Part shown: in pieces, positions 4,056 to 15,360 of the stretch
Layout: each line of letters opens with the position of its first letter
How positions within the stretch are numbered: the first letter of the stretch is position 1
Origin: an uncultured virus (IMG/VR IMGVR_UViG_3300021511_000004)
Taxonomy: Duplodnaviria > Heunggongvirae > Uroviricota > Caudoviricetes
IMG/VR virus record: IMGVR_UViG_3300021511_000004
Length of the DNA stretch: 20,000 nucleotides
Reading direction: 5' to 3' (one strand)
Translations under genes and position numbers: made by a program
The notes under the pieces: generated by a model
The model's database searches: none
What the model was told of the DNA's origin: nothing
Seen by the model: only the letters and a program-made list of their open reading frames with translations

Positions 4056-4787
4056 TTATTCTTCGCCTGAAAATGGAGTATTATCTGGCTGTGGAGTATC
4101 AGCAATACTTTCTTTGATTTTCTCAGCTAAGTTTGCTGATAGAACTGGATTGTTGGGCCGGTATTCCTTTTTCTTTTTTTGTGGTTTCGCTTTTTTTGGA
4201 ATGTTAGAAGTGAATCCAAGTTGTTCACAATGTTTACAAGGAGTCGTTGATTTGATTTCGTGATCCGGAACGACTTTTGGTATTTTTCCTTTACCACGAC
4301 ATTCAACACATTTTATATAAACTTCTCCTTCACCACCACATGTTTGACAGGTGACATTGATACCACCTCCACCTTTCCATCTTTTTTGAAATCTACCTGT
4401 ACCTTTACATTTTCTGCACTTGACTTTAATTTTCTTTTTTCCAGCGCAGATATGGCAGTTGACTTTTACAGTCTTGCGTTTAAATTTATAAATTTCGCCT
4501 GTACCTCTACAAGCAATACAGGTGTTCTCAAATGGCGAGATAATTTCAAAATATCTCTGTGCTTTCATTTGAGACGATACCAGAAGTTGTATCAATTGAT
4601 TTTTTGCCTCAATAAAAGGGTCGATTTCATCTAATTCGCCATTTTCTTTTTTAACCCAATAGTTTGCCTCAAAACATTTTAAGATATGTTCTGGAGTATA
4701 ATCAGCGCCAACTCCCAATAATTTTTCAAATTCAAATATAGTTTCGTCGGGTTGGTCTTGAGTGACAACTTCCTGTTCAATGGGCAT
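4056..4787 (-). CDS. DnaJ-type cysteine-rich zinc-finger repeat protein without a J-domain
   Basis: Six CxxC units (CIACRGTG, CHICAG, CRKCKGTG, CQTCGGEG, CVECRGKG, CKHCEQLG); AAGGAG RBS; no HPD motif. Confidence 0.8.
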   Translation of the reverse strand: MPIEQEVVTQDQPDETIFEFEKLLGVGADYTPEHILKCFEANYWVKKENGELDEIDPFIEAKNQLIQLLVSSQMKAQRYFEIISPFENTCIACRGTGEIYKFKRKTVKVNCHICAGKKKIKVKCRKCKGTGRFQKRWKGGGGINVTCQTCGGEGEVYIKCVECRGKGKIPKVVPDHEIKSTTPCKHCEQLGFTSNIPKKAKPQKKKKEYRPNNPVLSANLAEKIKESIADTPQPDNTPFSGEE

Positions 4788-5061: not shown

Positions 5062-5406
5062 ATGAATTTACAGGAATATGAAGTCATTTGCAATAAGTGT
5101 GATGGCGAAGGAGCTATCCATTCTGATGATCCACAGGGGGCGAGTGTTACATGCCCAAAATGTGACGGCGAAGGAAAAGTAGACTGGGTATCTAATGCTA
5201 TGGAAGGTGTATTATCTTTCAATAAATTACATGGAACTTTTACTTCAATTAATCCATGTGCTGATATAAACTTTCAAGTTGAGGGTAAAGAACTGTTGAG
5301 AATTACAAAAGATGCATTTTATATAAAAGGAAGGAAGGTTGTGAATGATGATAAAATATATAATGCGTTTGTTGATTTTTTTAAACAGACCGGAACTTAT
5401 ATCTAA
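5062..5406 (+). CDS. Small DnaJ-type zinc-finger protein (CxxCxGxG twice plus KxDW), paralog 1
   Basis: CNKCDGEG...CPKCDGEGKVDWVSNAM; AAGGA RBS. Confidence 0.8.
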   Translation: MNLQEYEVICNKCDGEGAIHSDDPQGASVTCPKCDGEGKVDWVSNAMEGVLSFNKLHGTFTSINPCADINFQVEGKELLRITKDAFYIKGRKVVNDDKIYNAFVDFFKQTGTYI

Positions 5407-5418
5407 GGAGGAAAATAT

Positions 5419-8400
5419 TTGATTTCAATAAAAAATTCGTTTGCAAATTGCTCAGTTTGTGATCTTTTAGATGCACCATCATGTATTCTTGAGACAAATT
5501 GTAAAAGTGATATTACTAAGGTTGATGTTGTTTTTATTGCGGAAAATCCTGGAAAAGATGAAGTTAAAAAAGGAAGTCCTTTAATAGGAAAAGCAGGAAA
5601 AAAGTTCCGAAAATATTTTGAGAGATTCGGAATAAATAAAATGAATTATTTATTAACTAATGTTGTTTTATGTCAAACAAAGAATCTAGATGGAACAACT
5701 GGTAATCCCACTAAAGAAGTCATAGAATTATGTAAAGATAATTGTATGCAAATTATTAAGGCATGTAATCCTAAATTAGTTGTATTAATGGGAACCAGTC
5801 CAATGTCAGCATTCGGAATTGCGAAAGCAGGAATTACAAATATTCATGAAAGATACGAGCTATTTGATTGGGAAGGATATAAAACTATGATTATTGTACA
5901 CCCTTCGTTTGTCAATAGAAATCAATCATGGGAACCTAAATTCTCTGAAGCAATGTCTAGAATCTCTGAGATGTTAGGAGGGAAAAAAATGGAGATAGCA
6001 GTTGAATCGAAAGCTAAATCGTTAGGTAAAGGGATTCATAGATATAGAATTCCAGATAAGTTTTATACTGAGAATTATAGATTAATTAATGTTCAATTTT
6101 TAAATAAGACAAGTCAAGTCTTATATATTTTCAGAGATAAAGATAATAATAAAGTATTTCATAAAGAAAATGATGATTACATTTGTTATCAAGCTCCTAA
6201 GGGAGTTGAAACAAGAAAACTTGTACCATATGAAAAATTAAATCAAATATCAATTAAATTTAAAGATAGATATAATCTAGATTCAAATATAACATATGAA
6301 GGTGATGTAAGAATTGCAACTAAACATGCTATGGATTACTATCATTATAATAAGGGAGAGTGTAAGAAAACTAAATCTAATATCATGTTCTTTGATATTG
6401 AAATTGACACTGGAGACGAACGAGTGTTCCCCAAACCAGAAGATGCAGCATTCCCAATTAATATGTTGACAACAATTCATAATGGTGAAAAAATATGTTA
6501 TGTAATTGATAATAAGACTGAACCGATAATAAAGAGACAAGATGTTGAATATAAAATCTTTGCTAATGAAAAGAAATTTCTACAAACGTTCATTAAAGAT
6601 TTTAAAGATACAGCCCCAGACTTTCTTGCTGGGTGGAATTGTATTAGCTTTGACCTTTCATATATTTATAATAGATTACCTCAGATTGGAATGCAACAGA
6701 CAAGCATGACATCTTTTGGTGAATTTTATATTGATGCTTCTAAGTTTGTATGCCATATACCTGGAACTGTAGCAGTAGATCAGGATTTCTTATATCGGAC
6801 ATTTACATTTACAAAAATGGAAAATTATAAGTTGGGGTTTATTGCTGATCATGAACTTGATGGTTATACAAAACTTGATTTGCCTTTACCATTCAATGAA
6901 ATGTACTGGAAGATGTTGAATAAAACAATTGAATACAACATCAGAGATACAGAATTGCTTGAGAAATTAGATGAAAAATTAGCTCATATCAATCTTTTGA
7001 ATGAGTTGAGAATTATTTGTAAAGCCAACTTTGAATCTACTTCATCATTTGGTCAGATTGACTCTTTAATGGTTTCGTATGCTAAGAACAAAGGAATAGC
7101 ATCAAAGAATAGTGATCCTCATATTGTTAAAGAAGAATATCCAGGAGCATTTGTATTTGAACCAATACCGGGAGTATATGATTGGATTACAGACTTTGAC
7201 TTTGCATCTCTATATCCAAGTTTAATGATAACATATAATATTGGAGTTAATAGTTTTGTAATGAAAACTGAAGACCCAAGTATGGGATATGATCTTGTTT
7301 ATGATAAAGAAAATTTACCAGATGTAATTAATGTTATAATCGACCCTTTATATGAAGCAAAAGTTGTACAAATGAATACAAAAGAATTGTATAAAATCAT
7401 ACAAAAGAAAGAACTAATTCATACAATCAACGGGTGTTTCTTTCACCCTCATAAGAAAGAATTTTCTATGTTTGGTGAGGTTGTTAATATGTTAATGACT
7501 TCAAGAAAGGGCTATAAAGGAAAGATGTTTGATGCAATTGAAGAAAAAGATAAAGACGAAGAAACATTTTATTACATAAGACAGTTAGTATATAAGGTGT
7601 TGGCAAATACACTATATGGAGTTGTTGCAAATAAAGCATTTAGATTTTTTGATACATCTTTAGCATCAGCTGTTACTCTTACTGGTCAAGAAGCATTAAA
7701 GACTTCAATTGTTCAGGGTGATGCTTATATGAGACATCTTGATACAGGAAGACCATTTGTTGAACCAACAAAAATTACAAAAGAAGAAATGTTTGCAAAT
7801 AAAATGCCTAAAAGAAGTAATGAGTATATCATAACTGGAGATACTGATTCAATTTTTTGTTGTTTTGAAAATTTCAGTGATGATCTATCAGTTGGAAATC
7901 TTCATGATTGGTGTGAGCAAATTGAAAACTTTTTAAATGAAGAGAAGATGATTGATGTAGTTAAAAGTCATAACGTTGATTTGGAGTTTAACAGACTGAA
8001 GTTGAAAAATGAATTGGTTATATCACGGGGTTTATTCTTAGCCAAGAAACGTTATGCTATTCGAGTTATTAATAATGAAGGCAAAGATGTTGATAAAATT
8101 AACTATATGGGTGTTGAAATTAAGAGATCAGATTACCCAAGGAAATCAAAAGAATTTTTAGTTGAGCTCTTGGACTTATTATTAAAATCAAAGAGAGTTT
8201 CATTAAATAAATTGATGGAGTTTGTTAATAGAGAAGAACAAAACTTCATTAAAGCAATTTTAGATGGTGATAAGAGTATTGCTCGACCTGTATCATATGG
8301 AAAGAAATTAAAAGATTATAAACTTGTTCCACAGGGAGTGAAAGCAATGGAGAATTGGAACACGTTAATGTATGATATTCATAAAACTGGCAATAAAGCA

Positions 8401-8649
8401 TATATGTACTGGGTTCAAGGTATTGATCTTGAAAAAGCTCCAAAAGACGTACAAGAAAAATATCATAAGTTTGTGAAGGATGGAAATAAGTTAGAAGTAA
8501 TTGCCATTCCAGATGAAGAACCACGGTTACCTAATTTCTTTATTCCAAATAAACAAGCAGCATTAAAATTTACGTTTAATAATAGGTATGAATTGATGTT
8601 AAAACCTTTAGATGTTAAGGTGAAAAGTAAGGAAGTTCTAACTTTCTAA
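5419..8649 (+). CDS. polB: Family-B DNA polymerase with an N-terminal family-4 uracil-DNA glycosylase domain
   Basis: UDG: CSVC, AENPG, GKAG, TNVVLC, ELC, HPS. Exonuclease: DIE, GWNCISFD, YNIRD. Polymerase: DFASLYPS, KVLANTLYG, TGDTDS, KKRY. TTG start with AAGGAGG RBS. Confidence 0.95.
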   Translation: MISIKNSFANCSVCDLLDAPSCILETNCKSDITKVDVVFIAENPGKDEVKKGSPLIGKAGKKFRKYFERFGINKMNYLLTNVVLCQTKNLDGTTGNPTKEVIELCKDNCMQIIKACNPKLVVLMGTSPMSAFGIAKAGITNIHERYELFDWEGYKTMIIVHPSFVNRNQSWEPKFSEAMSRISEMLGGKKMEIAVESKAKSLGKGIHRYRIPDKFYTENYRLINVQFLNKTSQVLYIFRDKDNNKVFHKENDDYICYQAPKGVETRKLVPYEKLNQISIKFKDRYNLDSNITYEGDVRIATKHAMDYYHYNKGECKKTKSNIMFFDIEIDTGDERVFPKPEDAAFPINMLTTIHNGEKICYVIDNKTEPIIKRQDVEYKIFANEKKFLQTFIKDFKDTAPDFLAGWNCISFDLSYIYNRLPQIGMQQTSMTSFGEFYIDASKFVCHIPGTVAVDQDFLYRTFTFTKMENYKLGFIADHELDGYTKLDLPLPFNEMYWKMLNKTIEYNIRDTELLEKLDEKLAHINLLNELRIICKANFESTSSFGQIDSLMVSYAKNKGIASKNSDPHIVKEEYPGAFVFEPIPGVYDWITDFDFASLYPSLMITYNIGVNSFVMKTEDPSMGYDLVYDKENLPDVINVIIDPLYEAKVVQMNTKELYKIIQKKELIHTINGCFFHPHKKEFSMFGEVVNMLMTSRKGYKGKMFDAIEEKDKDEETFYYIRQLVYKVLANTLYGVVANKAFRFFDTSLASAVTLTGQEALKTSIVQGDAYMRHLDTGRPFVEPTKITKEEMFANKMPKRSNEYIITGDTDSIFCCFENFSDDLSVGNLHDWCEQIENFLNEEKMIDVVKSHNVDLEFNRLKLKNELVISRGLFLAKKRYAIRVINNEGKDVDKINYMGVEIKRSDYPRKSKEFLVELLDLLLKSKRVSLNKLMEFVNREEQNFIKAILDGDKSIARPVSYGKKLKDYKLVPQGVKAMENWNTLMYDIHKTGNKAYMYWVQGIDLEKAPKDVQEKYHKFVKDGNKLEVIAIPDEEPRLPNFFIPNKQAALKFTFNNRYELMLKPLDVKVKSKEVLTF

Positions 8650-8668
8650 TTAGAACATAATAATGAAA
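8650..8668 (+). promoter_or_regulatory. GAACA-type putative phage promoter upstream of queE
   Basis: TTAGAACATAATAATGAAA in a 29-nt intergenic gap; resembles the motif at 1082, 5038, 11828 and 15394. Confidence 0.45.
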
Positions 8669-8678
8669 GGGGAATATA

Positions 8679-9344
8679 ATGGAAGAAGTTAAACTTATTG
8701 AGAATTTTGTGAGTTGGCAAGGGGAAGGTCCCGATAGTGGGCAAGCAATGATTATATTGAGATTTAAAACATGTAATTTGAAATGTCCTTGGTGTGATAC
8801 CTCTGTTAAAATGAGAATATCAGCTGAGGCTCCATATAAGTTAGAGGATATTCAACAAAGTATTTATAAAAATAAAGCAGGTATTCTTATAACAGGTGGA
8901 GAACCAACAGTGCCAAGGCATATTGATGAAGCAGCAGCATTATTGAATGAACTTCGTTATCCAGTTGCTAATGTCGAATCAAATGGATTTCAACTTGAAC
9001 AACTGATACAGAAAACAAAACATGAAGATAATATCCGCTTTATGTACTCACCTAAATTTTTTAATCACAAAGATCTTGGTTCTGCAATATCAAAAACAAG
9101 AGACCTCATAAATTATTCTAATCTATACATTAAAATTGTTTACGAAGACAAACCAATAGTGCATGAGTATCTTGACTGGTTATCATCACAAATTAAATTA
9201 GATAGAGCAAATAAGGTCTGGATTATGCCGGAAGGTGTTACAAGAGTTGACTTAATTAAAAATTCCGAAAAAGTGTTTAATGCATGTGAGAAGTACAAAT
9301 TTAATTTTTCATCAAGAGATCATATTATATTCGGTTTTGTATAA
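8679..9344 (+). CDS. queE: 7-carboxy-7-deazaguanine synthase-like radical SAM enzyme
   Basis: ENFVSWQGEG, LRFKTCNLKCPWCDT (CxxxCxxC), ITGGEP, VESNG, SPK, IMPEG and C-terminal RxH. Confidence 0.88.
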   Translation: MEEVKLIENFVSWQGEGPDSGQAMIILRFKTCNLKCPWCDTSVKMRISAEAPYKLEDIQQSIYKNKAGILITGGEPTVPRHIDEAAALLNELRYPVANVESNGFQLEQLIQKTKHEDNIRFMYSPKFFNHKDLGSAISKTRDLINYSNLYIKIVYEDKPIVHEYLDWLSSQIKLDRANKVWIMPEGVTRVDLIKNSEKVFNACEKYKFNFSSRDHIIFGFV

Positions 9345-9353
9345 GAAAGGGAG

Positions 9354-9743
9354 GTGATCGAGATTCAGGCATCTAGTTATCATAAACATTATTATCCAGA
9401 TGAGCATTCTGGAATATGTGTTGTTCGTCGCAAAGGTGAAAAAGATGAAGACTTCATTAAGAGATTTCGTAAGAAATTTTCAAAAAGTGGTCTTGCTAAA
9501 GAAGTACGAGATCGAATGTTCTTTGAAAAACCTAGTGATAAAAAGCGACGTAAGAAAGCTCAATCCATCAGGATGATAAAAAGAGATAAAGAAAAGCTCA
9601 TTGAAATGCATGAGCGTTACAAACGTATGAAGTTAAAAAGAAAAAGACAACAAGCTAAAGAAAGAAAAGCTAAAGGAGATAGATATGATCAACGCACTAG
9701 CAGACAAGATAGTAGTAGAGTTTCTGAGAACGACAAAGAGTGA
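9354..9743 (+). CDS. rpsU: Ribosomal protein bS21 with N- and C-terminal extensions (start possibly ATT 9363)
   Basis: VVRRKGEKDEDFIKRFRKKFSKSGLAKEVRDRMFFEKPSDKKRRKK is the bS21 signature. Confidence 0.88.
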   Translation: MIEIQASSYHKHYYPDEHSGICVVRRKGEKDEDFIKRFRKKFSKSGLAKEVRDRMFFEKPSDKKRRKKAQSIRMIKRDKEKLIEMHERYKRMKLKRKRQQAKERKAKGDRYDQRTSRQDSSRVSENDKE

Positions 9744-10035
9744 GGGAGGATTAATAATTCCTGATATAGCTCAAGATCCTCAAGGTTATGGCAAAGTACT
9801 TTCAGTTGGGGAAGATGTAAAGATTATCAAAGAAGGTGACGTTCTTGTTTTTCATATGAGAGCGGGAATGGATTTAATTCTTAATGATAAAGTCCAAAAA
9901 TGTTTGAAAGCTGAGGAAGTATATGGTATTCTGGAAGATGAAGAACTTATAAGCAGACTTGCACCTCTTGAGTTTAAAGCAAAAGAAGAACAGTCAAAAA
10001 TAGTTAAACCAGGAGGGGGTGTTATAATTGCTTAA
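9685..10035 (+). CDS. groES: Co-chaperonin GroES (Cpn10)
   Basis: ALADKIVV, KSEGGLIIPD mobile loop, GKVLSVG, IKEGDVLVF, EEVYGIL; AAGGAG RBS. Confidence 0.88.
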   Translation: MINALADKIVVEFLRTTKSEGGLIIPDIAQDPQGYGKVLSVGEDVKIIKEGDVLVFHMRAGMDLILNDKVQKCLKAEEVYGILEDEELISRLAPLEFKAKEEQSKIVKPGGGVIIA

Positions 10036-10828
10036 TCTGCAACATATAGAGGCCACCAGCTTGAATGATACATGGTTTCAAACATTATTTAAAATGCTTG
10101 AAGAAGGTACAGTATTCAAAATTGATCGTGGCTCAAATGCTGGCCAGAAACGCTTAGAGTTTGATTGGATTACTTTACATATAAACAATCCAGGCGTTCG
10201 TCCATTACTACCGCAAATTGAGGATCATTATGGTATTCCTAATCCAGTAAAGGATGACTATCTAGATGATTATCTACCATATTTAATGACTGCAGAATTA
10301 AAACCAACAGAGTCATATACATATGGTCAAAGGTTGACAGGATATCCAGTTAAATATCCTTTACAATTATGTAAGGAAGGTCATTGGCCAGAAATTCTTA
10401 TTCATGAAGTAGAAGAGTTAATTAAACTTGGAATTATATACTCAACAGGATTTTGGCATGTAAATCAGATTGAACTTCTTATTTGGACTTATAAAAATAA
10501 GGGATTCAGAAATAATCAAATGGTTTTACAGGTAGCTCATCCATCTGATATGTTGCTTCAAGACCCACCTTGTTTACGCCATATTGATACTCGAATTCAA
10601 GATGGGAAGTTACATTTCATGCCGTATTTTCGGAGTTGGGACTTATGGGGCGGATTGCCTGCAAATCTAGGAGGAATCCAACTCTTAAAAGAATATGTTG
10701 CTGCAGAAATTGGAGTTGAAGATGGAGAAATGGTTGCTACAAGTAAGGGACTTCATATTTATGATTACTCGTTTGACCTTGCAAAATGTCTAAGAATGCG
10801 AGATGATATTCAGTTGAAAGGAGAATAA
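10028..10828 (+). CDS. thyA: Thymidylate synthase family protein (archaeal-like ThyA, dUMP-type Asn)
   Basis: YTYGQRL, DPPCL (catalytic Cys), FRSWDLWGGLPAN, GLHIY; TTG start with GGAGG RBS. Confidence 0.85.
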   Translation: MLNLQHIEATSLNDTWFQTLFKMLEEGTVFKIDRGSNAGQKRLEFDWITLHINNPGVRPLLPQIEDHYGIPNPVKDDYLDDYLPYLMTAELKPTESYTYGQRLTGYPVKYPLQLCKEGHWPEILIHEVEELIKLGIIYSTGFWHVNQIELLIWTYKNKGFRNNQMVLQVAHPSDMLLQDPPCLRHIDTRIQDGKLHFMPYFRSWDLWGGLPANLGGIQLLKEYVAAEIGVEDGEMVATSKGLHIYDYSFDLAKCLRMRDDIQLKGE

Positions 10829-10830
10829 CA

Positions 10831-11358
10831 ATGTCTACTGTTGTTGCAATTGTTGATAAAGGAAAAGTTTGGATGGGTGCTGATAGTTATGCTACAATGG
10901 AGGGTGGACAGAGAAGACGTATAATGTGTAAAAAAATGTTTGTAAATCCTCCATATCTTATTGGTCATGTTGGTAGTGTTAGAGTAGGTCAAGTTGTCAA
11001 ACCAGAGTACTTTAAAGCACCTGAAAATATTTTACAATTTCCTGATAACCTAATTAAACATTTTAGAAAGAAAGGTTGTTTGGGTATAGACTCAGATGAT
11101 CAAACTACTACAAATGGATCGAACTTTTTAATAGCTACCCCATATGGTAAATTATATGAACTTCTTGTAGATTTTCAATTAAATGAAGTTGAAGATTTTA
11201 CATCTATTGGATCAGGATCTACATTTGCGCTTGGTTCTTTATATACAACAAGAAAAAAGAAAAATCATAGAAAACGAATAATAACTGCTTTAAAAATAGC
11301 AGCTGTTTATGATATGCAAACTGGTCCTCCGTTTATAGTTGAGGAATATTTGGAATGA
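10831..11358 (+). CDS. HslV/proteasome-beta-like Ntn hydrolase
   Basis: MSTVVAI...MGADS, conserved Lys, SIGSGSTFALGSL, AAVYDMQTGPP. Confidence 0.75.
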   Translation: MSTVVAIVDKGKVWMGADSYATMEGGQRRRIMCKKMFVNPPYLIGHVGSVRVGQVVKPEYFKAPENILQFPDNLIKHFRKKGCLGIDSDDQTTTNGSNFLIATPYGKLYELLVDFQLNEVEDFTSIGSGSTFALGSLYTTRKKKNHRKRIITALKIAAVYDMQTGPPFIVEEYLE

Positions 11359-11789
11359 TGGATATTATTGTATCAGAAGATACTATTGTATTAAGAGAAG
11401 ATGAAATAATTTGTCCTGTGTGTAAAGGTGTGGGGCATACTAAAAAAAGTATATATGTCTGTGAAAAATGTGATGGTACTGGAAAAGTTGATTGGATTGC
11501 CAATGCAATGGTGAAAAAGAAGAAAGGAAGGTCATTTTTAGATGAGATAAATATAAGAAGGTTAGTTCTACATCTTAAATCTCTAGTCACCGGTCTTCAA
11601 TTTGAACCAAATGATAAAATTACTTTTGATACTCTAAAAGGAATGATGGAATCTTATCTAGACACAATGAAGAGCAGAAAAGCAATTTATGACTATAATA
11701 TCATACAATCTCCTACAAATCATTTAAACATTCATGTAAAACCAAATAGATCAATTGAAGTAGTTAATATGGAGTTTACTATAGTATAA
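11355..11789 (+). CDS. DnaJ-type zinc finger fused to a tail-sheath C-terminal-like domain, paralog 2
   Basis: CPVCKGVG...CEKCDGTGKVDWIANAM followed by INIRRL...FEPND...YL...IYDY...IHVKPNRSIEVVNMEF, a gp18 sheath C-terminal signature. Confidence 0.75.
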   Translation: MMDIIVSEDTIVLREDEIICPVCKGVGHTKKSIYVCEKCDGTGKVDWIANAMVKKKKGRSFLDEINIRRLVLHLKSLVTGLQFEPNDKITFDTLKGMMESYLDTMKSRKAIYDYNIIQSPTNHLNIHVKPNRSIEVVNMEFTIV

Positions 11790-11826
11790 AACTAACTGAT
11801 AAATGTAGATTATATGTGAAATATTT

Positions 11827-11842
11827 GGAACAAAGAATAAAT
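11827..11842 (+). promoter_or_regulatory. GAACAAA-type putative phage promoter
   Basis: GGAACAAAGAATAAAT just upstream of the AGGAGA RBS and ATG 11861. Confidence 0.45.
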
Positions 11843-11860
11843 AGATTAGGAGAATACAGA

Positions 11861-13267
11861 ATGGTTAGAAGTGGATATGTACTTGCAGGTTTTGAAACAT
11901 TAGCGACTATTATGGATTTGTTTATGACTGGGCAACGTGGAAGATTTAATGATAACTTCACAAGAGCAGAAATCTCAAATTTTCTATCTAGTACATGCTC
12001 TGGTTTTTTACATTCATACGGACAGAATTTTGCAAATAAAAAGAAGTATGATAAATACAATCAAACTGAAGCAAATATGTTTAAAAAATGTAGAGACATG
12101 CAGATTTTTGATAATTGTAATTTTATCGTGGATAGCGGTGGATTTCAAATTTCAACCGGTAGATTAACAAGAAAAGAATCTGACCTTCTTCATATAATGT
12201 ATTATGATTTTATTGAAGAACATCATGAAGTATTTGATAAAGCTTTTATTTTGGATATTCCTCCGGGACCTGGTTGTGAAATTTTCAAAAATTTCTATGA
12301 TGTATATAAATTAAATCTTGAATCTTATACTAGAGCAAAAGAACTTCCAGATGAAATAAGAAAGAAACTTATTTATGTTCATCATTTCAGAACTCCTAGA
12401 TTGTGGGAAATATATACAAGAATTCTACGAGATTATGATATGTTTTCTGCATTTGAATATCATAGTACTGGTGGTATTGTGGCGAATATGTCAAGCGATA
12501 TGTCAATACCATGCATTATTTATGTCCTACCATTAATCCCTCTTATTAATGAAGCAATGAGAGACAAAAGGAATTATCTAAATTTTCATATTCTCGGAGG
12601 TGCCAACTTTAGAGACGTTTTATTTTATGAACTATTTAAAATCACAGTCAAAAAGAAACATAATTTTGATCTAAATATAACTTATGATTCATCCGGTCCA
12701 TATAAGCAAGTAATGCACGCAAGATTTTTACATGCAAAAGATGAACATAATTATATTAGAAAAATGAGTATTAAAGAAAGCGATTTAGATAAAAGATTTA
12801 TGGTTGATAAAACAACTATAGATAATTATCAAGACCTTATGAATAAAATGGCAGATAAATGGCAGTTTAAACGAATTGACATTGATGGAGTGTATGGAAT
12901 GTATGAAAATAAATCTGGAATCATGACAAGTACATTTCATGCAGACGTAAAAGCATATGCAATTTTATATGCATTGAATATTTATTCTGAAATTCATGAT
13001 GAAATGAGAGAATTTGCTGAAAAGGTGTATCCAATATATGAAGCTGGTTTACTGGAACAATTTTATCATGAATGTTTTGAAATTACAAGAACTATTAATC
13101 AAGGAAAACTAACAAAAAAACAAAAGATTAAAGCTCATAGTATTCCAAAATCTCTTGATATGTTGGGTGATTTAGATGAAGATTACTGTGAATTTTTGAT
13201 AAATAAATATTTAGCAAAAGATGAATTTGTTGAGTTAAATGAACGCAAAAAGGTGCTTACATTTTAA
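11861..13267 (+). CDS. tRNA-guanine transglycosylase-fold protein, DpdA-like DNA base-exchange candidate
   Basis: TGT motifs in order: IVDSGGFQ, ILDIPP, TGGIV, FHILGG, TYDSSG. No CxCxxC zinc site of tRNA TGTs. Start moved from 11816 to ATG 11861 because of the AGGAGA RBS at 11848-11853. Confidence 0.75.
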   Translation: MVRSGYVLAGFETLATIMDLFMTGQRGRFNDNFTRAEISNFLSSTCSGFLHSYGQNFANKKKYDKYNQTEANMFKKCRDMQIFDNCNFIVDSGGFQISTGRLTRKESDLLHIMYYDFIEEHHEVFDKAFILDIPPGPGCEIFKNFYDVYKLNLESYTRAKELPDEIRKKLIYVHHFRTPRLWEIYTRILRDYDMFSAFEYHSTGGIVANMSSDMSIPCIIYVLPLIPLINEAMRDKRNYLNFHILGGANFRDVLFYELFKITVKKKHNFDLNITYDSSGPYKQVMHARFLHAKDEHNYIRKMSIKESDLDKRFMVDKTTIDNYQDLMNKMADKWQFKRIDIDGVYGMYENKSGIMTSTFHADVKAYAILYALNIYSEIHDEMREFAEKVYPIYEAGLLEQFYHECFEITRTINQGKLTKKQKIKAHSIPKSLDMLGDLDEDYCEFLINKYLAKDEFVELNERKKVLTF

Positions 13268-13548
13268 TGGAATTAAGATATAATAAATATAAAAAAACCT
13301 TATTATCTTTGGATGAAGGTGAGGAATTTTGTAAAACATGTAATGGAGATGGTATAATAAGTTCAAAAAGAAGTTACCCTGCTCTTAATATAAGAACTGG
13401 TAATCCTTTAGTATGTAAAGATTGTTTGGGTGATGGTAAAATTGATTGGATTGAAAAAGCAATTGGCAAAAGACCACAAATACCATTTATTAATATGACA
13501 ATAGAAAGAACAAAACTTGTTCCAAGAATAAGGAAATTTAAAAGGTGA
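13267..13548 (+). CDS. Small DnaJ-type zinc-finger protein, paralog 3
   Basis: CKTCNGDG...CKDCLGDGKIDWIEKAI; C-terminal IPFINMTIERTKLVPRIRKFK. Confidence 0.8.
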   Translation: MELRYNKYKKTLLSLDEGEEFCKTCNGDGIISSKRSYPALNIRTGNPLVCKDCLGDGKIDWIEKAIGKRPQIPFINMTIERTKLVPRIRKFKR

Positions 13549-13867
13549 AAGATGAACCATATCTCAAAGAAGGAGAAGTGATTTGTGATAACTGCAATGG
13601 AGATGGAAAACTTTCAATAACTCTTGGCAGTATTACTGTCTGCACTAAATGTTGGGGGGGGCTGGAACTAGTGGTTTTGCTTTACCATTTGATGCTCCAG
13701 CAGGTTTTGATAGAAGTCATGATGATGCGATAGATGCAATGGCTAAGCAACTTGCCGATGAAATAGACAAAGAAATCTTAGAATCTATATTAGAGTCAGT
13801 GGAACAAACTAATAAATTAATGAAAATAGCAAAAACAGTGATGTATGAAATGGAGGATAAAACTTGA
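13545..13867 (+). pseudogene. Small DnaJ-type zinc-finger protein, paralog 4, split by a frameshift at a G8 tract
   Basis: ORF 13545..13733 (CDNCNGDG...CTKCWG) and ORF 13649..13867 join in frame if the G run at 13654-13661 is G6 (CTKCWGAG) or G9. Confidence 0.6.
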
Positions 13868-15360
13868 TAACAGAATCATTTTTAAATTCGTGCTTTTCTT
13901 TACTATTAAATCAAAAATCAAAAATTAAGAAAACTAAAGCATTATACCGAGATATTCTTGAAATTTTGAATTTTAGCGATACAAAAGATTCATACGAAAT
14001 TCCTTTACCTGTTAAGAGTAAGTTGGAATTTTTAAAGAAAATCACTGAAATGTTATTAACTGATAAAACACCAGAAAGTGTTAGAGATAGTGTTTCATTA
14101 AGTGAAAAGTTTAAACAACACCAAGATTTTTTGGACTTAAAAATTAATGAAGATTTAAACGAAGCTGTTTTCCAAGATTATGTGCGGCAGGTAAGAATAA
14201 GGAAAAAGATAGGTGCATTGTTTCAAAATTATGATGAACTTAATACAGTTTTAGAGTCAATAAAAGATGGGTCGTTTGACTCTATTGATGATTTAGTTGA
14301 AGATTATGAAGTAACAATCAAAACTCTTTATACAAATATGATGGAGAGTAATAGAGCAGTAACAATTGAAGCTGCTGCGTCTCTTGATTTAATGAAGGAT
14401 GACTATACCTCAGTAATTGAAATGATTACAAAAAAGTATGAAAAAACAAATAAAACTCCAAGCGGATTTCGTTTACTTGATGGTATAGATTATTTAAATG
14501 GCGGGTATGAACCATCAAGGTTATATGTTTGGGGAGGGGGTTCTGGAGCAGGTAAATCAACATTAATAAACAATTCAATTTATAGGGCTGCTTTGTCAAA
14601 TCAATTTCTTACGATTGAAGGTGGTAAACCTCCAGTACCTGGAGAGATTCATAAGGTTTATGTTTATGTAACAATGGAGAATACAATTGAAGAATCTCTA
14701 ATGAGAACATATCAACCAATGTTTGATAAGACAATCCCAATGATGATTACTGATATTAAGAATAACGTACCAATTGGGAAAATAATTTCAGATGAACTAG
14801 CAAAAAATAGTGCAACAATTGTAATGAAATACTTTCCGGCAATGAGTATTAGTACTCTTGATTTAATGGGAGTTATTGATGAAGTAATTGATGAATATGG
14901 TATAGAGGCAATTGCTGGTTTATATGTTGATTATTTAGATCTTCTAAAAACTGATACTAAATATGATATATATAGATTAGAACTTGGGCATATTACTTTA
15001 GCTTTAAAAACACTAGCAGTTCAATATGGTATTCCTGTAATAACAGCTACGCAACTATCAAGAAGAGTATACAATATTCAAGAGTCAAGAGAATTAAATC
15101 TTGATCAAATGTCTGAGTCAATAAAGAAAGTTGAACATGCAGATTTTGTGGGATTACTTGGCAAAGATCAAAATGATAATTCTATAGTTCATGGAAAAAT
15201 TGGAAAAAATAGAGCGGGAAAAAGCAACATTGCTTTACAGTTTCAAGTTGATTTTTCAAAATTCAAATTTATTGATGCAACTGTAGCAGCAAATAAAAGT
15301 AAAATAGATTCCTCTGATGATGAACAACCTTTATTTGATGGATTAGGTATAAAGTTTTAG
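13864..15360 (+). CDS. dnaB: Replicative SF4 helicase (DnaB / T4 gp41-like)
   Basis: Walker A GGSGAGKS, YVTMEN, Walker B YVDYLDL, TATQLSR, KNRAG; TTG start with GGAGG RBS. Confidence 0.92.
   Translation: MITESFLNSCFSLLLNQKSKIKKTKALYRDILEILNFSDTKDSYEIPLPVKSKLEFLKKITEMLLTDKTPESVRDSVSLSEKFKQHQDFLDLKINEDLNEAVFQDYVRQVRIRKKIGALFQNYDELNTVLESIKDGSFDSIDDLVEDYEVTIKTLYTNMMESNRAVTIEAAASLDLMKDDYTSVIEMITKKYEKTNKTPSGFRLLDGIDYLNGGYEPSRLYVWGGGSGAGKSTLINNSIYRAALSNQFLTIEGGKPPVPGEIHKVYVYVTMENTIEESLMRTYQPMFDKTIPMMITDIKNNVPIGKIISDELAKNSATIVMKYFPAMSISTLDLMGVIDEVIDEYGIEAIAGLYVDYLDLLKTDTKYDIYRLELGHITLALKTLAVQYGIPVITATQLSRRVYNIQESRELNLDQMSESIKKVEHADFVGLLGKDQNDNSIVHGKIGKNRAGKSNIALQFQVDFSKFKFIDATVAANKSKIDSSDDEQPLFDGLGIKF

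Follow-up and report, generated by a model that had tools for sequence, protein, structure and literature searches.

A family-B DNA polymerase and a DpdA-like transglycosylase encoded by an uncultured giant phage of the Caudoviricetes terminate in the same short peptide, and this shared tail is probably a clamp-docking peptide that tethers DNA-modifying enzymes to the phage replisome. Both genes lie in the 20,000-nucleotide stretch of IMG/VR record IMGVR_UViG_3300021511_000004 analysed here as a whole and termed the window, a replication and early-gene block with a G+C content of 26-38% in which 28 genes were scored. The polymerase (5419..8649, + strand) ends in ...VKVKSKEVLTF, its tail KSKEVLTF being encoded at 8623..8646 (+ strand; core VLTF at 8635-8646, stop codon TAA at 8647-8649), and the DpdA-like protein (11858..13267, + strand) ends in ...NERKKVLTF, with VLTF at 13253-13264 and the stop codon TAA at 13265-13267.

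An earlier note on this DNA had drawn attention to the endings KSKEVLTF and RKKVLTF and to a difference at every third codon base across VLTF, and both observations were confirmed by reading the two open reading frames (ORFs). None of the four codons has the same third base in both genes, GTT CTA ACT TTC in the polymerase gene standing against GTG CTT ACA TTT in the DpdA-like gene, and the likeness therefore lies at the protein level. A tail profile of 6 residues, trained on 21 distinct polymerase tails of related contigs, gives scores of 15.6 for the polymerase and 13.8 for the DpdA-like protein; these are the only positive scores among the 28 window genes, the next best being -0.2. The tail was followed further in five related IMG/VR contigs fetched whole (G001-G005, 203-255 kb each; 1675 crude ORFs called), of which G001 is the nearest to the window, the two polymerases being 76% identical. 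The strict pattern, [VIL][LM]T[FILV]-COOH, is found at 10 of the 1675 ORF ends, where about 0.5 would be expected from its frequency inside proteins (103 of 355,716 positions, 2.9e-4). These ten ends belong to 4 polymerases, 3 DpdA-like proteins, 1 DNA methyltransferase, 1 stand-alone methyltransferase C-terminal module and 1 unrelated 98-residue ORF, and the nine top profile scores of the whole set belong to 5 polymerases, 3 DpdA-like proteins and 1 DNA methyltransferase. In a ranking by tail score of the 130 gene families that occur in three or more of the five contigs, the DpdA family comes second, right after the polymerase family on which the profile was trained. By the same scores the tail is not present on the helicase, primase, topoisomerase, RNA polymerase subunits or clamp of G001-G005. 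The third-ranking family, of about 250 residues and ending in ...SQTLTF, is a vWA-domain protein and was set aside as a look-alike lying inside the fold, because its structural alignment extends to the last residue. An SbcC-like family has a weak [IT]L[ST][FL] near its C-terminus.

The third enzyme that carries the tail is a DNA methyltransferase. In G002 (L057:13562-15001:+) it is an N6/N4 DNA methyltransferase of 479 residues; residues 29-313 match PF01555 (E 3.3e-43), and the C-terminal extension that follows, some 165 residues long, ends in KDVMTI. Among its 120 best homologues 20 have strict and 28 have broad tails, the broad pattern being a looser form of the strict one, and these lie mostly within the closest 60 and typically read ...PKD[IV]LT[IFV]. 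G001 retains the extension only, as a 92-residue ORF ending in HDILTL (L035:16479-16757:-); the C-terminal module of the methyltransferase (about 140 residues) thus persists there as a small ORF of its own, with the tail but without the methylase domain. This ORF is flanked by the genes for the topoisomerase II subunits and may be either a remnant or a clamp-binding module that acts freely. Each family has its own linker before the tail (a basic one in the polymerase, D-x-K-T-[RK] in DpdA, P-K-D in the methyltransferase), and the last four residues are common to all three. Thus, three families, all of them DNA-acting enzymes, share the tail in spite of their different linkers.

The polymerase comprises 1076 residues, with an N-terminal uracil-DNA glycosylase (UDG)-like domain, and matches PF00136 (DNA_pol_B; E 1.4e-37), PF03104 (PolB exonuclease; E 1.7e-14) and PF03167 (UDG; E 1.4e-17) in Pfam and the DNA polymerase family phrog_262 in PHROGs (E 1.1e-122). 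Among solved structures, RB69 and T4 gp43 are the closest in sequence (E 5e-35 to 1e-33), and 2684 phage records match the protein, all below 60% identity, those among the matches listed being T4-like phages at about 26-29%. From these similarities it is assigned to the T4/RB69 gp43 type of family B, its PolB exonuclease and polymerase domains being nearest to gp43, and its tail is taken as a putative clamp ligand because the tail of the homologous gp43 binds the clamp. Residues 8-174 (window 5440-5940) resemble the Thermus family-4 UDG 1ui0 (E 3.2e-15), and the fusion of UDG and polymerase is present in all relatives, whose polymerases comprise about 1070-1118 residues. UDG fusions have reportedly been described of late for A-family phage polymerases; we know of no report of UDG fused to a polymerase of the gp43 type.

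The DpdA-like protein comprises 469 residues, the ORF being open from GTG 11816 and the homologues beginning at ATG 11858. It matches none of the Pfam families, the tRNA-guanine transglycosylase (TGT) family PF01702 included, and shows a weak match in PHROGs to phrog_887 (queuine tRNA-ribosyltransferase; E 3.8e-7) over the 112 residues 83-194. No tblastn match at E ≤ 1e-5 was found in 50,697 cultured-phage records (best E 0.3), and the PDB holds no sequence match, a profile search included. The family is a large one of uncultured members, with 542 proteins at E ≤ 0.001 (3099 candidates scored) and 294 representatives in a library clustered at 50%. An AlphaFold2 model built from 34 sequences has a mean predicted local distance difference test (pLDDT) score of 86.3, and Foldseek ranks 7ui4, the preQ0 insertase DpdA, as its best PDB match (E 2e-5), ahead of the archaeosine TGT 1j2b (E 1e-4) and many bacterial TGTs, with template modelling (TM) scores of 0.35-0.42. 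In BFVD the model matches phage TGT/DpdA-like proteins, including R9TGF0 of Vibrio phage nt-1. The DSGGFQ motif is invariant in alignment A1 of the family, and four residues do not vary even across 67 members at great distance, namely the DSGGxQ Asp, a further Asp (xDSS), one His and one Leu. The two Asp residues are presumably the catalytic pair of TGTs.

Genes for 7-deazaguanine precursors accompany this protein. A QueE-like radical-SAM enzyme of the 7-carboxy-7-deazaguanine synthase type is encoded in the window at 8679..9344 (+ strand; phrog_2076, E 9.8e-33; Pfam Radical_SAM, E 2.7e-9), and QueD, QueC and QueE are found in G001; FolE was not seen alongside the Que genes in either. The protein is assigned as a DpdA-like enzyme because of its fold matches and of the co-occurring QueE, QueD and QueC genes, and is predicted to represent an unnamed branch with a TIM-barrel fold of the TGT type. 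We infer that DNA is its substrate. A divergent thymidylate-synthase-like protein, encoded at 10028-10828 between the QueE and DpdA-like genes, matches PF00303 (E 3.8e-11) in its C-terminal half only and could be a pyrimidine hydroxymethylase, hinting at a second DNA modification. The last helix of the DpdA-like model ends at about residue 451-455, and residues 456-469, the disordered C-terminal tail ending in RKKVLTF (13223..13264, + strand), are modelled as coil with pLDDT falling from 57 to 47 and lying below 50 in segments 459-462 and 465-469. The tail is thus predicted to behave as a short linear motif on a flexible linker.

Loss of the tails in homologues was one of the two outcomes by which the earlier note would have seen its reading refuted, and both tails are in fact kept across the related contigs. 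Among the 120 closest DpdA-like homologues (61-92% identity) 36 tails are strict and 56 broad, and 78 have the arrangement hydrophobic-[LMIF]-x-hydrophobic 0-2 residues from the end. A set of 26 related loci yielded 25 polymerase and 25 DpdA C-termini, the window counted, and 23 loci with both proteins. The polymerase tail, in the window and 24 loci, is strict in 18 of 25 and broad in 22 of 25, against 12 of 25 broad DpdA tails; of the two, the polymerase tail thus varies less, and that of DpdA is a looser copy of it. The broad motif stands on both proteins at 11 of the 23 loci, on the polymerase only at 9 and on neither at 3. At greater distance, 118 of 150 DpdA-like representatives retain the C-terminal region; 94 of these 118 end in F, I, L, V, W or M, compared with 562 of the 1675 background ends, and 14 of the 118 are strict even with the linker wholly diverged. 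In Campylobacter phage CP220, a DpdA3 phage, none of the A1 profile, phrog_887 and PF01702 picked up a transglycosylase, and the polymerase ends in KETETLEEW.

Co-conservation of both tails in relatives, which the earlier note had proposed to check, is seen, and the tails also covary between lineages. Further distant pairs were collected by a locus scan with the 19-sequence alignment A4, the 67-sequence alignment A3 being too diverse, which recovered 48 loci; query P0407 yielded none. At the distant locus L111 (lineage G006), reached through a distant DpdA-like representative that ends in DGFDFL, the polymerase, of 1114 residues and 30% identical to that of the window, ends in ...NVEVDGFDFL and the DpdA-like protein in ...NNQVDGFDFL, so that the two share the identical 7-mer VDGFDFL. 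In another lineage the polymerase ends in RLATF and the DpdA-like protein in QLACF, and further matched pairs are ILKF/IVRW, LLKF/LLRF, MLKF/LIKF and VLKI/VLKI. When the last four residues are compared in 35 unique pairs, identity is found at 60 of 140 positions, against a mean of 42.2 in shuffled pairs (permutation p about 1e-4, kinship ignored), and a basic residue at position -2 co-occurs in both tails (Fisher p 0.02, kinship likewise ignored). Kinship accounts less easily for the full switch of motif in L111.

It could be argued that two unrelated C-termini are alike by coincidence, each being kept for a structural reason of its own, since a match of four residues is short and the vWA family with its ...SQTLTF inside the fold shows that look-alikes do arise. 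This explanation appears extremely improbable when some 0.5 strict tails are expected and ten are seen, concentrated in three DNA-enzyme families, with DpdA second among 130 families; the tails moreover covary, one lineage has an identical 7-mer on both proteins and disorder is modelled for the DpdA tail. The match between the polymerase and DpdA tails is therefore regarded, as far as the sequences indicate, as not due to chance.

A candidate partner for the tails is found in the large contigs. The PHROG annotation of G001 covers 264 of 312 crude ORFs (left out are 9 interrupted by a border between 20-kb pieces, and 39 more, mostly short) and includes a gp44-like clamp loader (phrog_168, E 3.6e-53). 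Located 2 kb from the loader gene, and flanked by a primase-like gene and the gene for a FEN-type 5'-3' exonuclease, is a gene for a 251-residue protein with no family match, whose model is of high confidence (pLDDT 91.9, predicted TM score 0.87). Foldseek aligns this model with at least 500 PDB chains at E ≤ 0.001, nearly all of those among the matches listed being PCNA or other sliding clamps, with 3aix_A as the best match (E 5.1e-10, TM 0.63). The protein is accordingly predicted to be a PCNA-fold sliding clamp. It was found by position and fold, no clamp being named by sequence in PHROGs, Pfam or the PDB profile search and no match to gp45 being seen at the sequence level. Weak matches to PF02916 were rejected as a clamp; they lie inside an RNA polymerase beta ORF and were taken as chance. 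Clamp and loader are present in four of the five large contigs (G001, G002, G003 and G005). At L111, a 241-residue ORF between the polymerase and DpdA genes shows no profile similarity to the clamp. A prediction of the complex of 3 clamp copies (alignment A2) with DpdA-like residues 430-469 returned a score of 0.00, which is no answer and counts neither way.

The tail might instead dock on a partner other than the clamp, for example on another hub of the replisome (helicase, single-strand-binding protein or clamp loader) or on a receptor for sorting or import, as a shared, co-evolving and disordered C-terminal peptide would fit any common partner. An import receptor would be in keeping with the two split sets of RNA polymerase beta/beta' genes of G001, as found in nucleus-forming jumbo phages, and a partner other than the clamp would suit G004, which keeps an LTF-type polymerase tail with no clamp or loader detectable in its 255-kb contig. 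The polymerase is nevertheless of the gp43 type, and in T4 and RB69 it is the C-terminal tail that serves as clamp ligand (PMC2988020, available part); the DGFDFL of the distant lineage resembles the LDFL clamp motif (PMC9690074, available part). Furthermore, the tail is carried by DNA-acting enzymes only, and a general import signal is therefore disfavoured. Taken together, a non-clamp partner is considered rather unlikely. The ends of the G004 proteins are DPLTF in the polymerase and DILEI in the DpdA-like protein.

A further explanation is offered by a neighbouring gene. An HslV-family peptidase is encoded at 10831-11358 (phrog_1040, E 7.7e-18), just upstream of the DpdA-like gene, and a gene of this family occurs in the same block in G001. 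Hydrophobic C-termini can act as degrons, and the tail might be such a signal, setting the time at which early DNA enzymes are broken down by a protease of the host or by the HslV-like peptidase of the phage. Such a signal would require neither the covariation of polymerase and DpdA tails across lineages nor the switch to an LDFL-like motif of the clamp type in the distant lineage, and no precedent on a replicative polymerase was found in the literature examined; degradation signalling is thus judged very unlikely.

The preferred explanation remains the docking of the tail on the clamp. The last four residues ([VI]-L-T-[FI]-COOH), borne on a flexible and partly basic linker, would act as the docking peptide for one common partner, most likely the PCNA-fold sliding clamp of the phage itself. 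The polymerase would hold the clamp with its tail, as T4 and RB69 gp43 do with theirs, and DpdA and the methyltransferase, by copying the polymerase tail, would bind at the same site and travel with the clamps loaded onto phage DNA. In newly copied phage DNA a 7-deazaguanine made by QueC, QueD and QueE would then take the place of guanine, and the outcome would be a high and phage-restricted modification.

The earlier note had inferred that the base-exchange enzyme rides the phage clamp, from the known binding of the gp43, gp33 and gp55 tails of T4 to gp45. That background is right, according to the available part of PMC2988020, and the inference is partly supported, in that the tails are conserved and covary, the DpdA tail is modelled as disordered, a methyltransferase carries the tail and the relatives encode a PCNA-fold clamp and a loader. 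The further steps of the note, modification behind the fork, a DNA substrate and self-targeting, stand as predictions. Several points weigh against clamp docking. The window tails, K-x-VLTF with basic neighbours, are not of the hydrophobic-acidic LDFL type of T4, DGFDFL being found only in the distant G006, and the 20-kb window holds no clamp or loader gene, the clamp being known from related contigs. G004 (255 kb, estimated as 82% complete) is without detectable clamp or loader, and either the remaining 18% of its genome carries these genes or another processivity factor is used. The role of the polymerase tail is drawn from homology to gp43, at 27% identity to cultured T4-like phages, and clamp binding by the tails is likewise putative. 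The DpdA tail is looser than that of the polymerase, 13 of 25 missing the broad pattern, and 9 of the 23 paired loci keep the motif on the polymerase and not on DpdA, which ends for example in KVDIWE or VLPFHE. Unmatched distant pairs (LQRK/QSLI, DIWI/HVDI, LMTI/PLRF) occur, and two lineages with shorter polymerases are likewise unmatched. Finally, the shuffling behind the permutation test takes no account of the relatedness of the contigs, and the p-values are therefore optimistic. The wider proposal, that in a broad group of uncultured T4-like giant phages a DpdA-like transglycosylase and an adenine methyltransferase acquired clamp-docking copies that track the motif of the lineage (VLTF, LATF, DGFDFL), thereby coupling 7-deazaguanine insertion to the fork on clamp-loaded phage DNA, is advanced tentatively, as one that falls a little short of an even chance.

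In the window, a DnaB-like replicative helicase is encoded at 13864..15360 (+ strand; PF03796, E 3.4e-17; phrog_19, E 7.7e-41) in the replication gene block, and a nicotinate phosphoribosyltransferase gene lies at 123-1046 on the - strand. A gene for ribosomal protein S21 (9354-9743; PF01165, E 5e-11) is followed by one for a GroES-like co-chaperonin (9685-10035), the two ORFs overlapping by 59 bases. At least 5 small proteins with DnaJ-type CxxCxGxG zinc-finger repeats are scattered over the replication block, at 4056-4787 (- strand), 5062-5406, 11355-11789, 13267-13548 and 13545-13733 of the window and at L038:9703-10032:- of G001; they match the ends of Pfam DnaJ_CXXCXGXG and Anti-TRAP, mostly under the cut-off, and one of them occupies the position of T4 gp62, after the clamp loader. 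G001 (223 kb) mixes T4-like sheath, baseplate, portal and gp43/gp44 genes with RNA polymerases of the phiKZ kind, its two sets of split multisubunit beta/beta' genes lying at L034:11964-18348 and L036:7573-14838. G001-G005 are rich in HNH/homing-endonuclease genes (more than 10 in G001 alone by PHROG), several of which adjoin core genes such as those for terminase, ribonucleotide reductase and portal.

The question at stake is how DpdA reaches every guanine, and on phage DNA only. Modification of DNA with 7-deazaguanines is held to be post-replicative, by DpdA insertion, with an efficiency that ranges from less than 0.1% to complete, and complete replacement is reported for DpdA3 (Cui/Hutinet 2023, PMC10516641, available part). 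A clamp tail on a DpdA-like enzyme would be a directly testable answer; if true, it would explain in physical terms how replacement can be very high and how host DNA is spared, and the clamp "toolbelt" of T4, which serves transcription factors and alpha-glucosyltransferase, would extend to base exchange and methylation in a large group of uncultured phages. No link between DpdA and a sliding clamp was found in the literature searched, the papers that name both appearing unrelated by title and start of abstract; the word "clamp" occurs 0 times in PMC10516641, and 7-deazaguanine combined with the replisome returned nothing relevant by title. The known DpdA enzymes (bDpdA, DpdA1-4) resemble the present family in the TGT-type fold, 7ui4 being the best match, in the accompanying Que genes and in a position within a replication gene block. 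In contrast to them, the present family has no Pfam TGT match, no cultured-phage match at E ≤ 1e-5 and no PDB sequence match.

The closest parallel to the proposed docking is provided by the clients of gp45 in T4 and RB69. T4 gp43, gp55 and gp33 have highly similar, interchangeable C-termini, hydrophobic and acidic, that bind gp45 (PMC2988020, available part), and the clamp motif of gp55 and gp33 is LDFL (PMC9690074, available part). Similarly, functionally different proteins of one phage here share the short C-terminal peptide of the polymerase on a variable linker, and the relatives encode their own clamp fold of the trimer type and a gp44-like loader. The putative clients differ in being DNA-modifying enzymes, where gp55 and gp33 of T4 are transcription factors, and in their motif, [VI]-L-T-[FI]-COOH preceded by residues that are basic or neutral. 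A phage DNA-modification enzyme tied to the phage clamp, as is proposed here, has its counterpart in T4 alpha-glucosyltransferase, which co-purifies with gp45 (Sommer et al. 2004, quoted in PMC13216743, where pull-down was used to test it again) and for which modification concomitant with replication has been proposed (PMC13216743, available part), the interaction with gp45 not being the main determinant of the levels of alpha- versus beta-glucosylation (PMC13216743, 2026, available part). That enzyme glucosylates 5-hydroxymethylcytosine, whereas the DpdA-like enzyme would exchange the guanine base, and no polymerase-like C-terminal motif is reported for it in the available part of PMC13216743.

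A eukaryotic parallel is DNMT1 and PCNA, where a clamp-binding motif on a DNA-modifying enzyme favours newly replicated DNA, the relatives examined here having a tailed methyltransferase of their own. In eukaryotes the PIP-type motif is not known to lie at the very C-terminus, and the role is maintenance methylation, not anti-restriction camouflage. Dnmt1 is described as carrying a PCNA-binding motif in the available part of PMC9690074. Precedents for clamp-bound DNA modifiers thus exist in alpha-glucosyltransferase with gp45 and in DNMT1 with PCNA, and a DpdA enzyme with a polymerase-type tail appears to be new among them.

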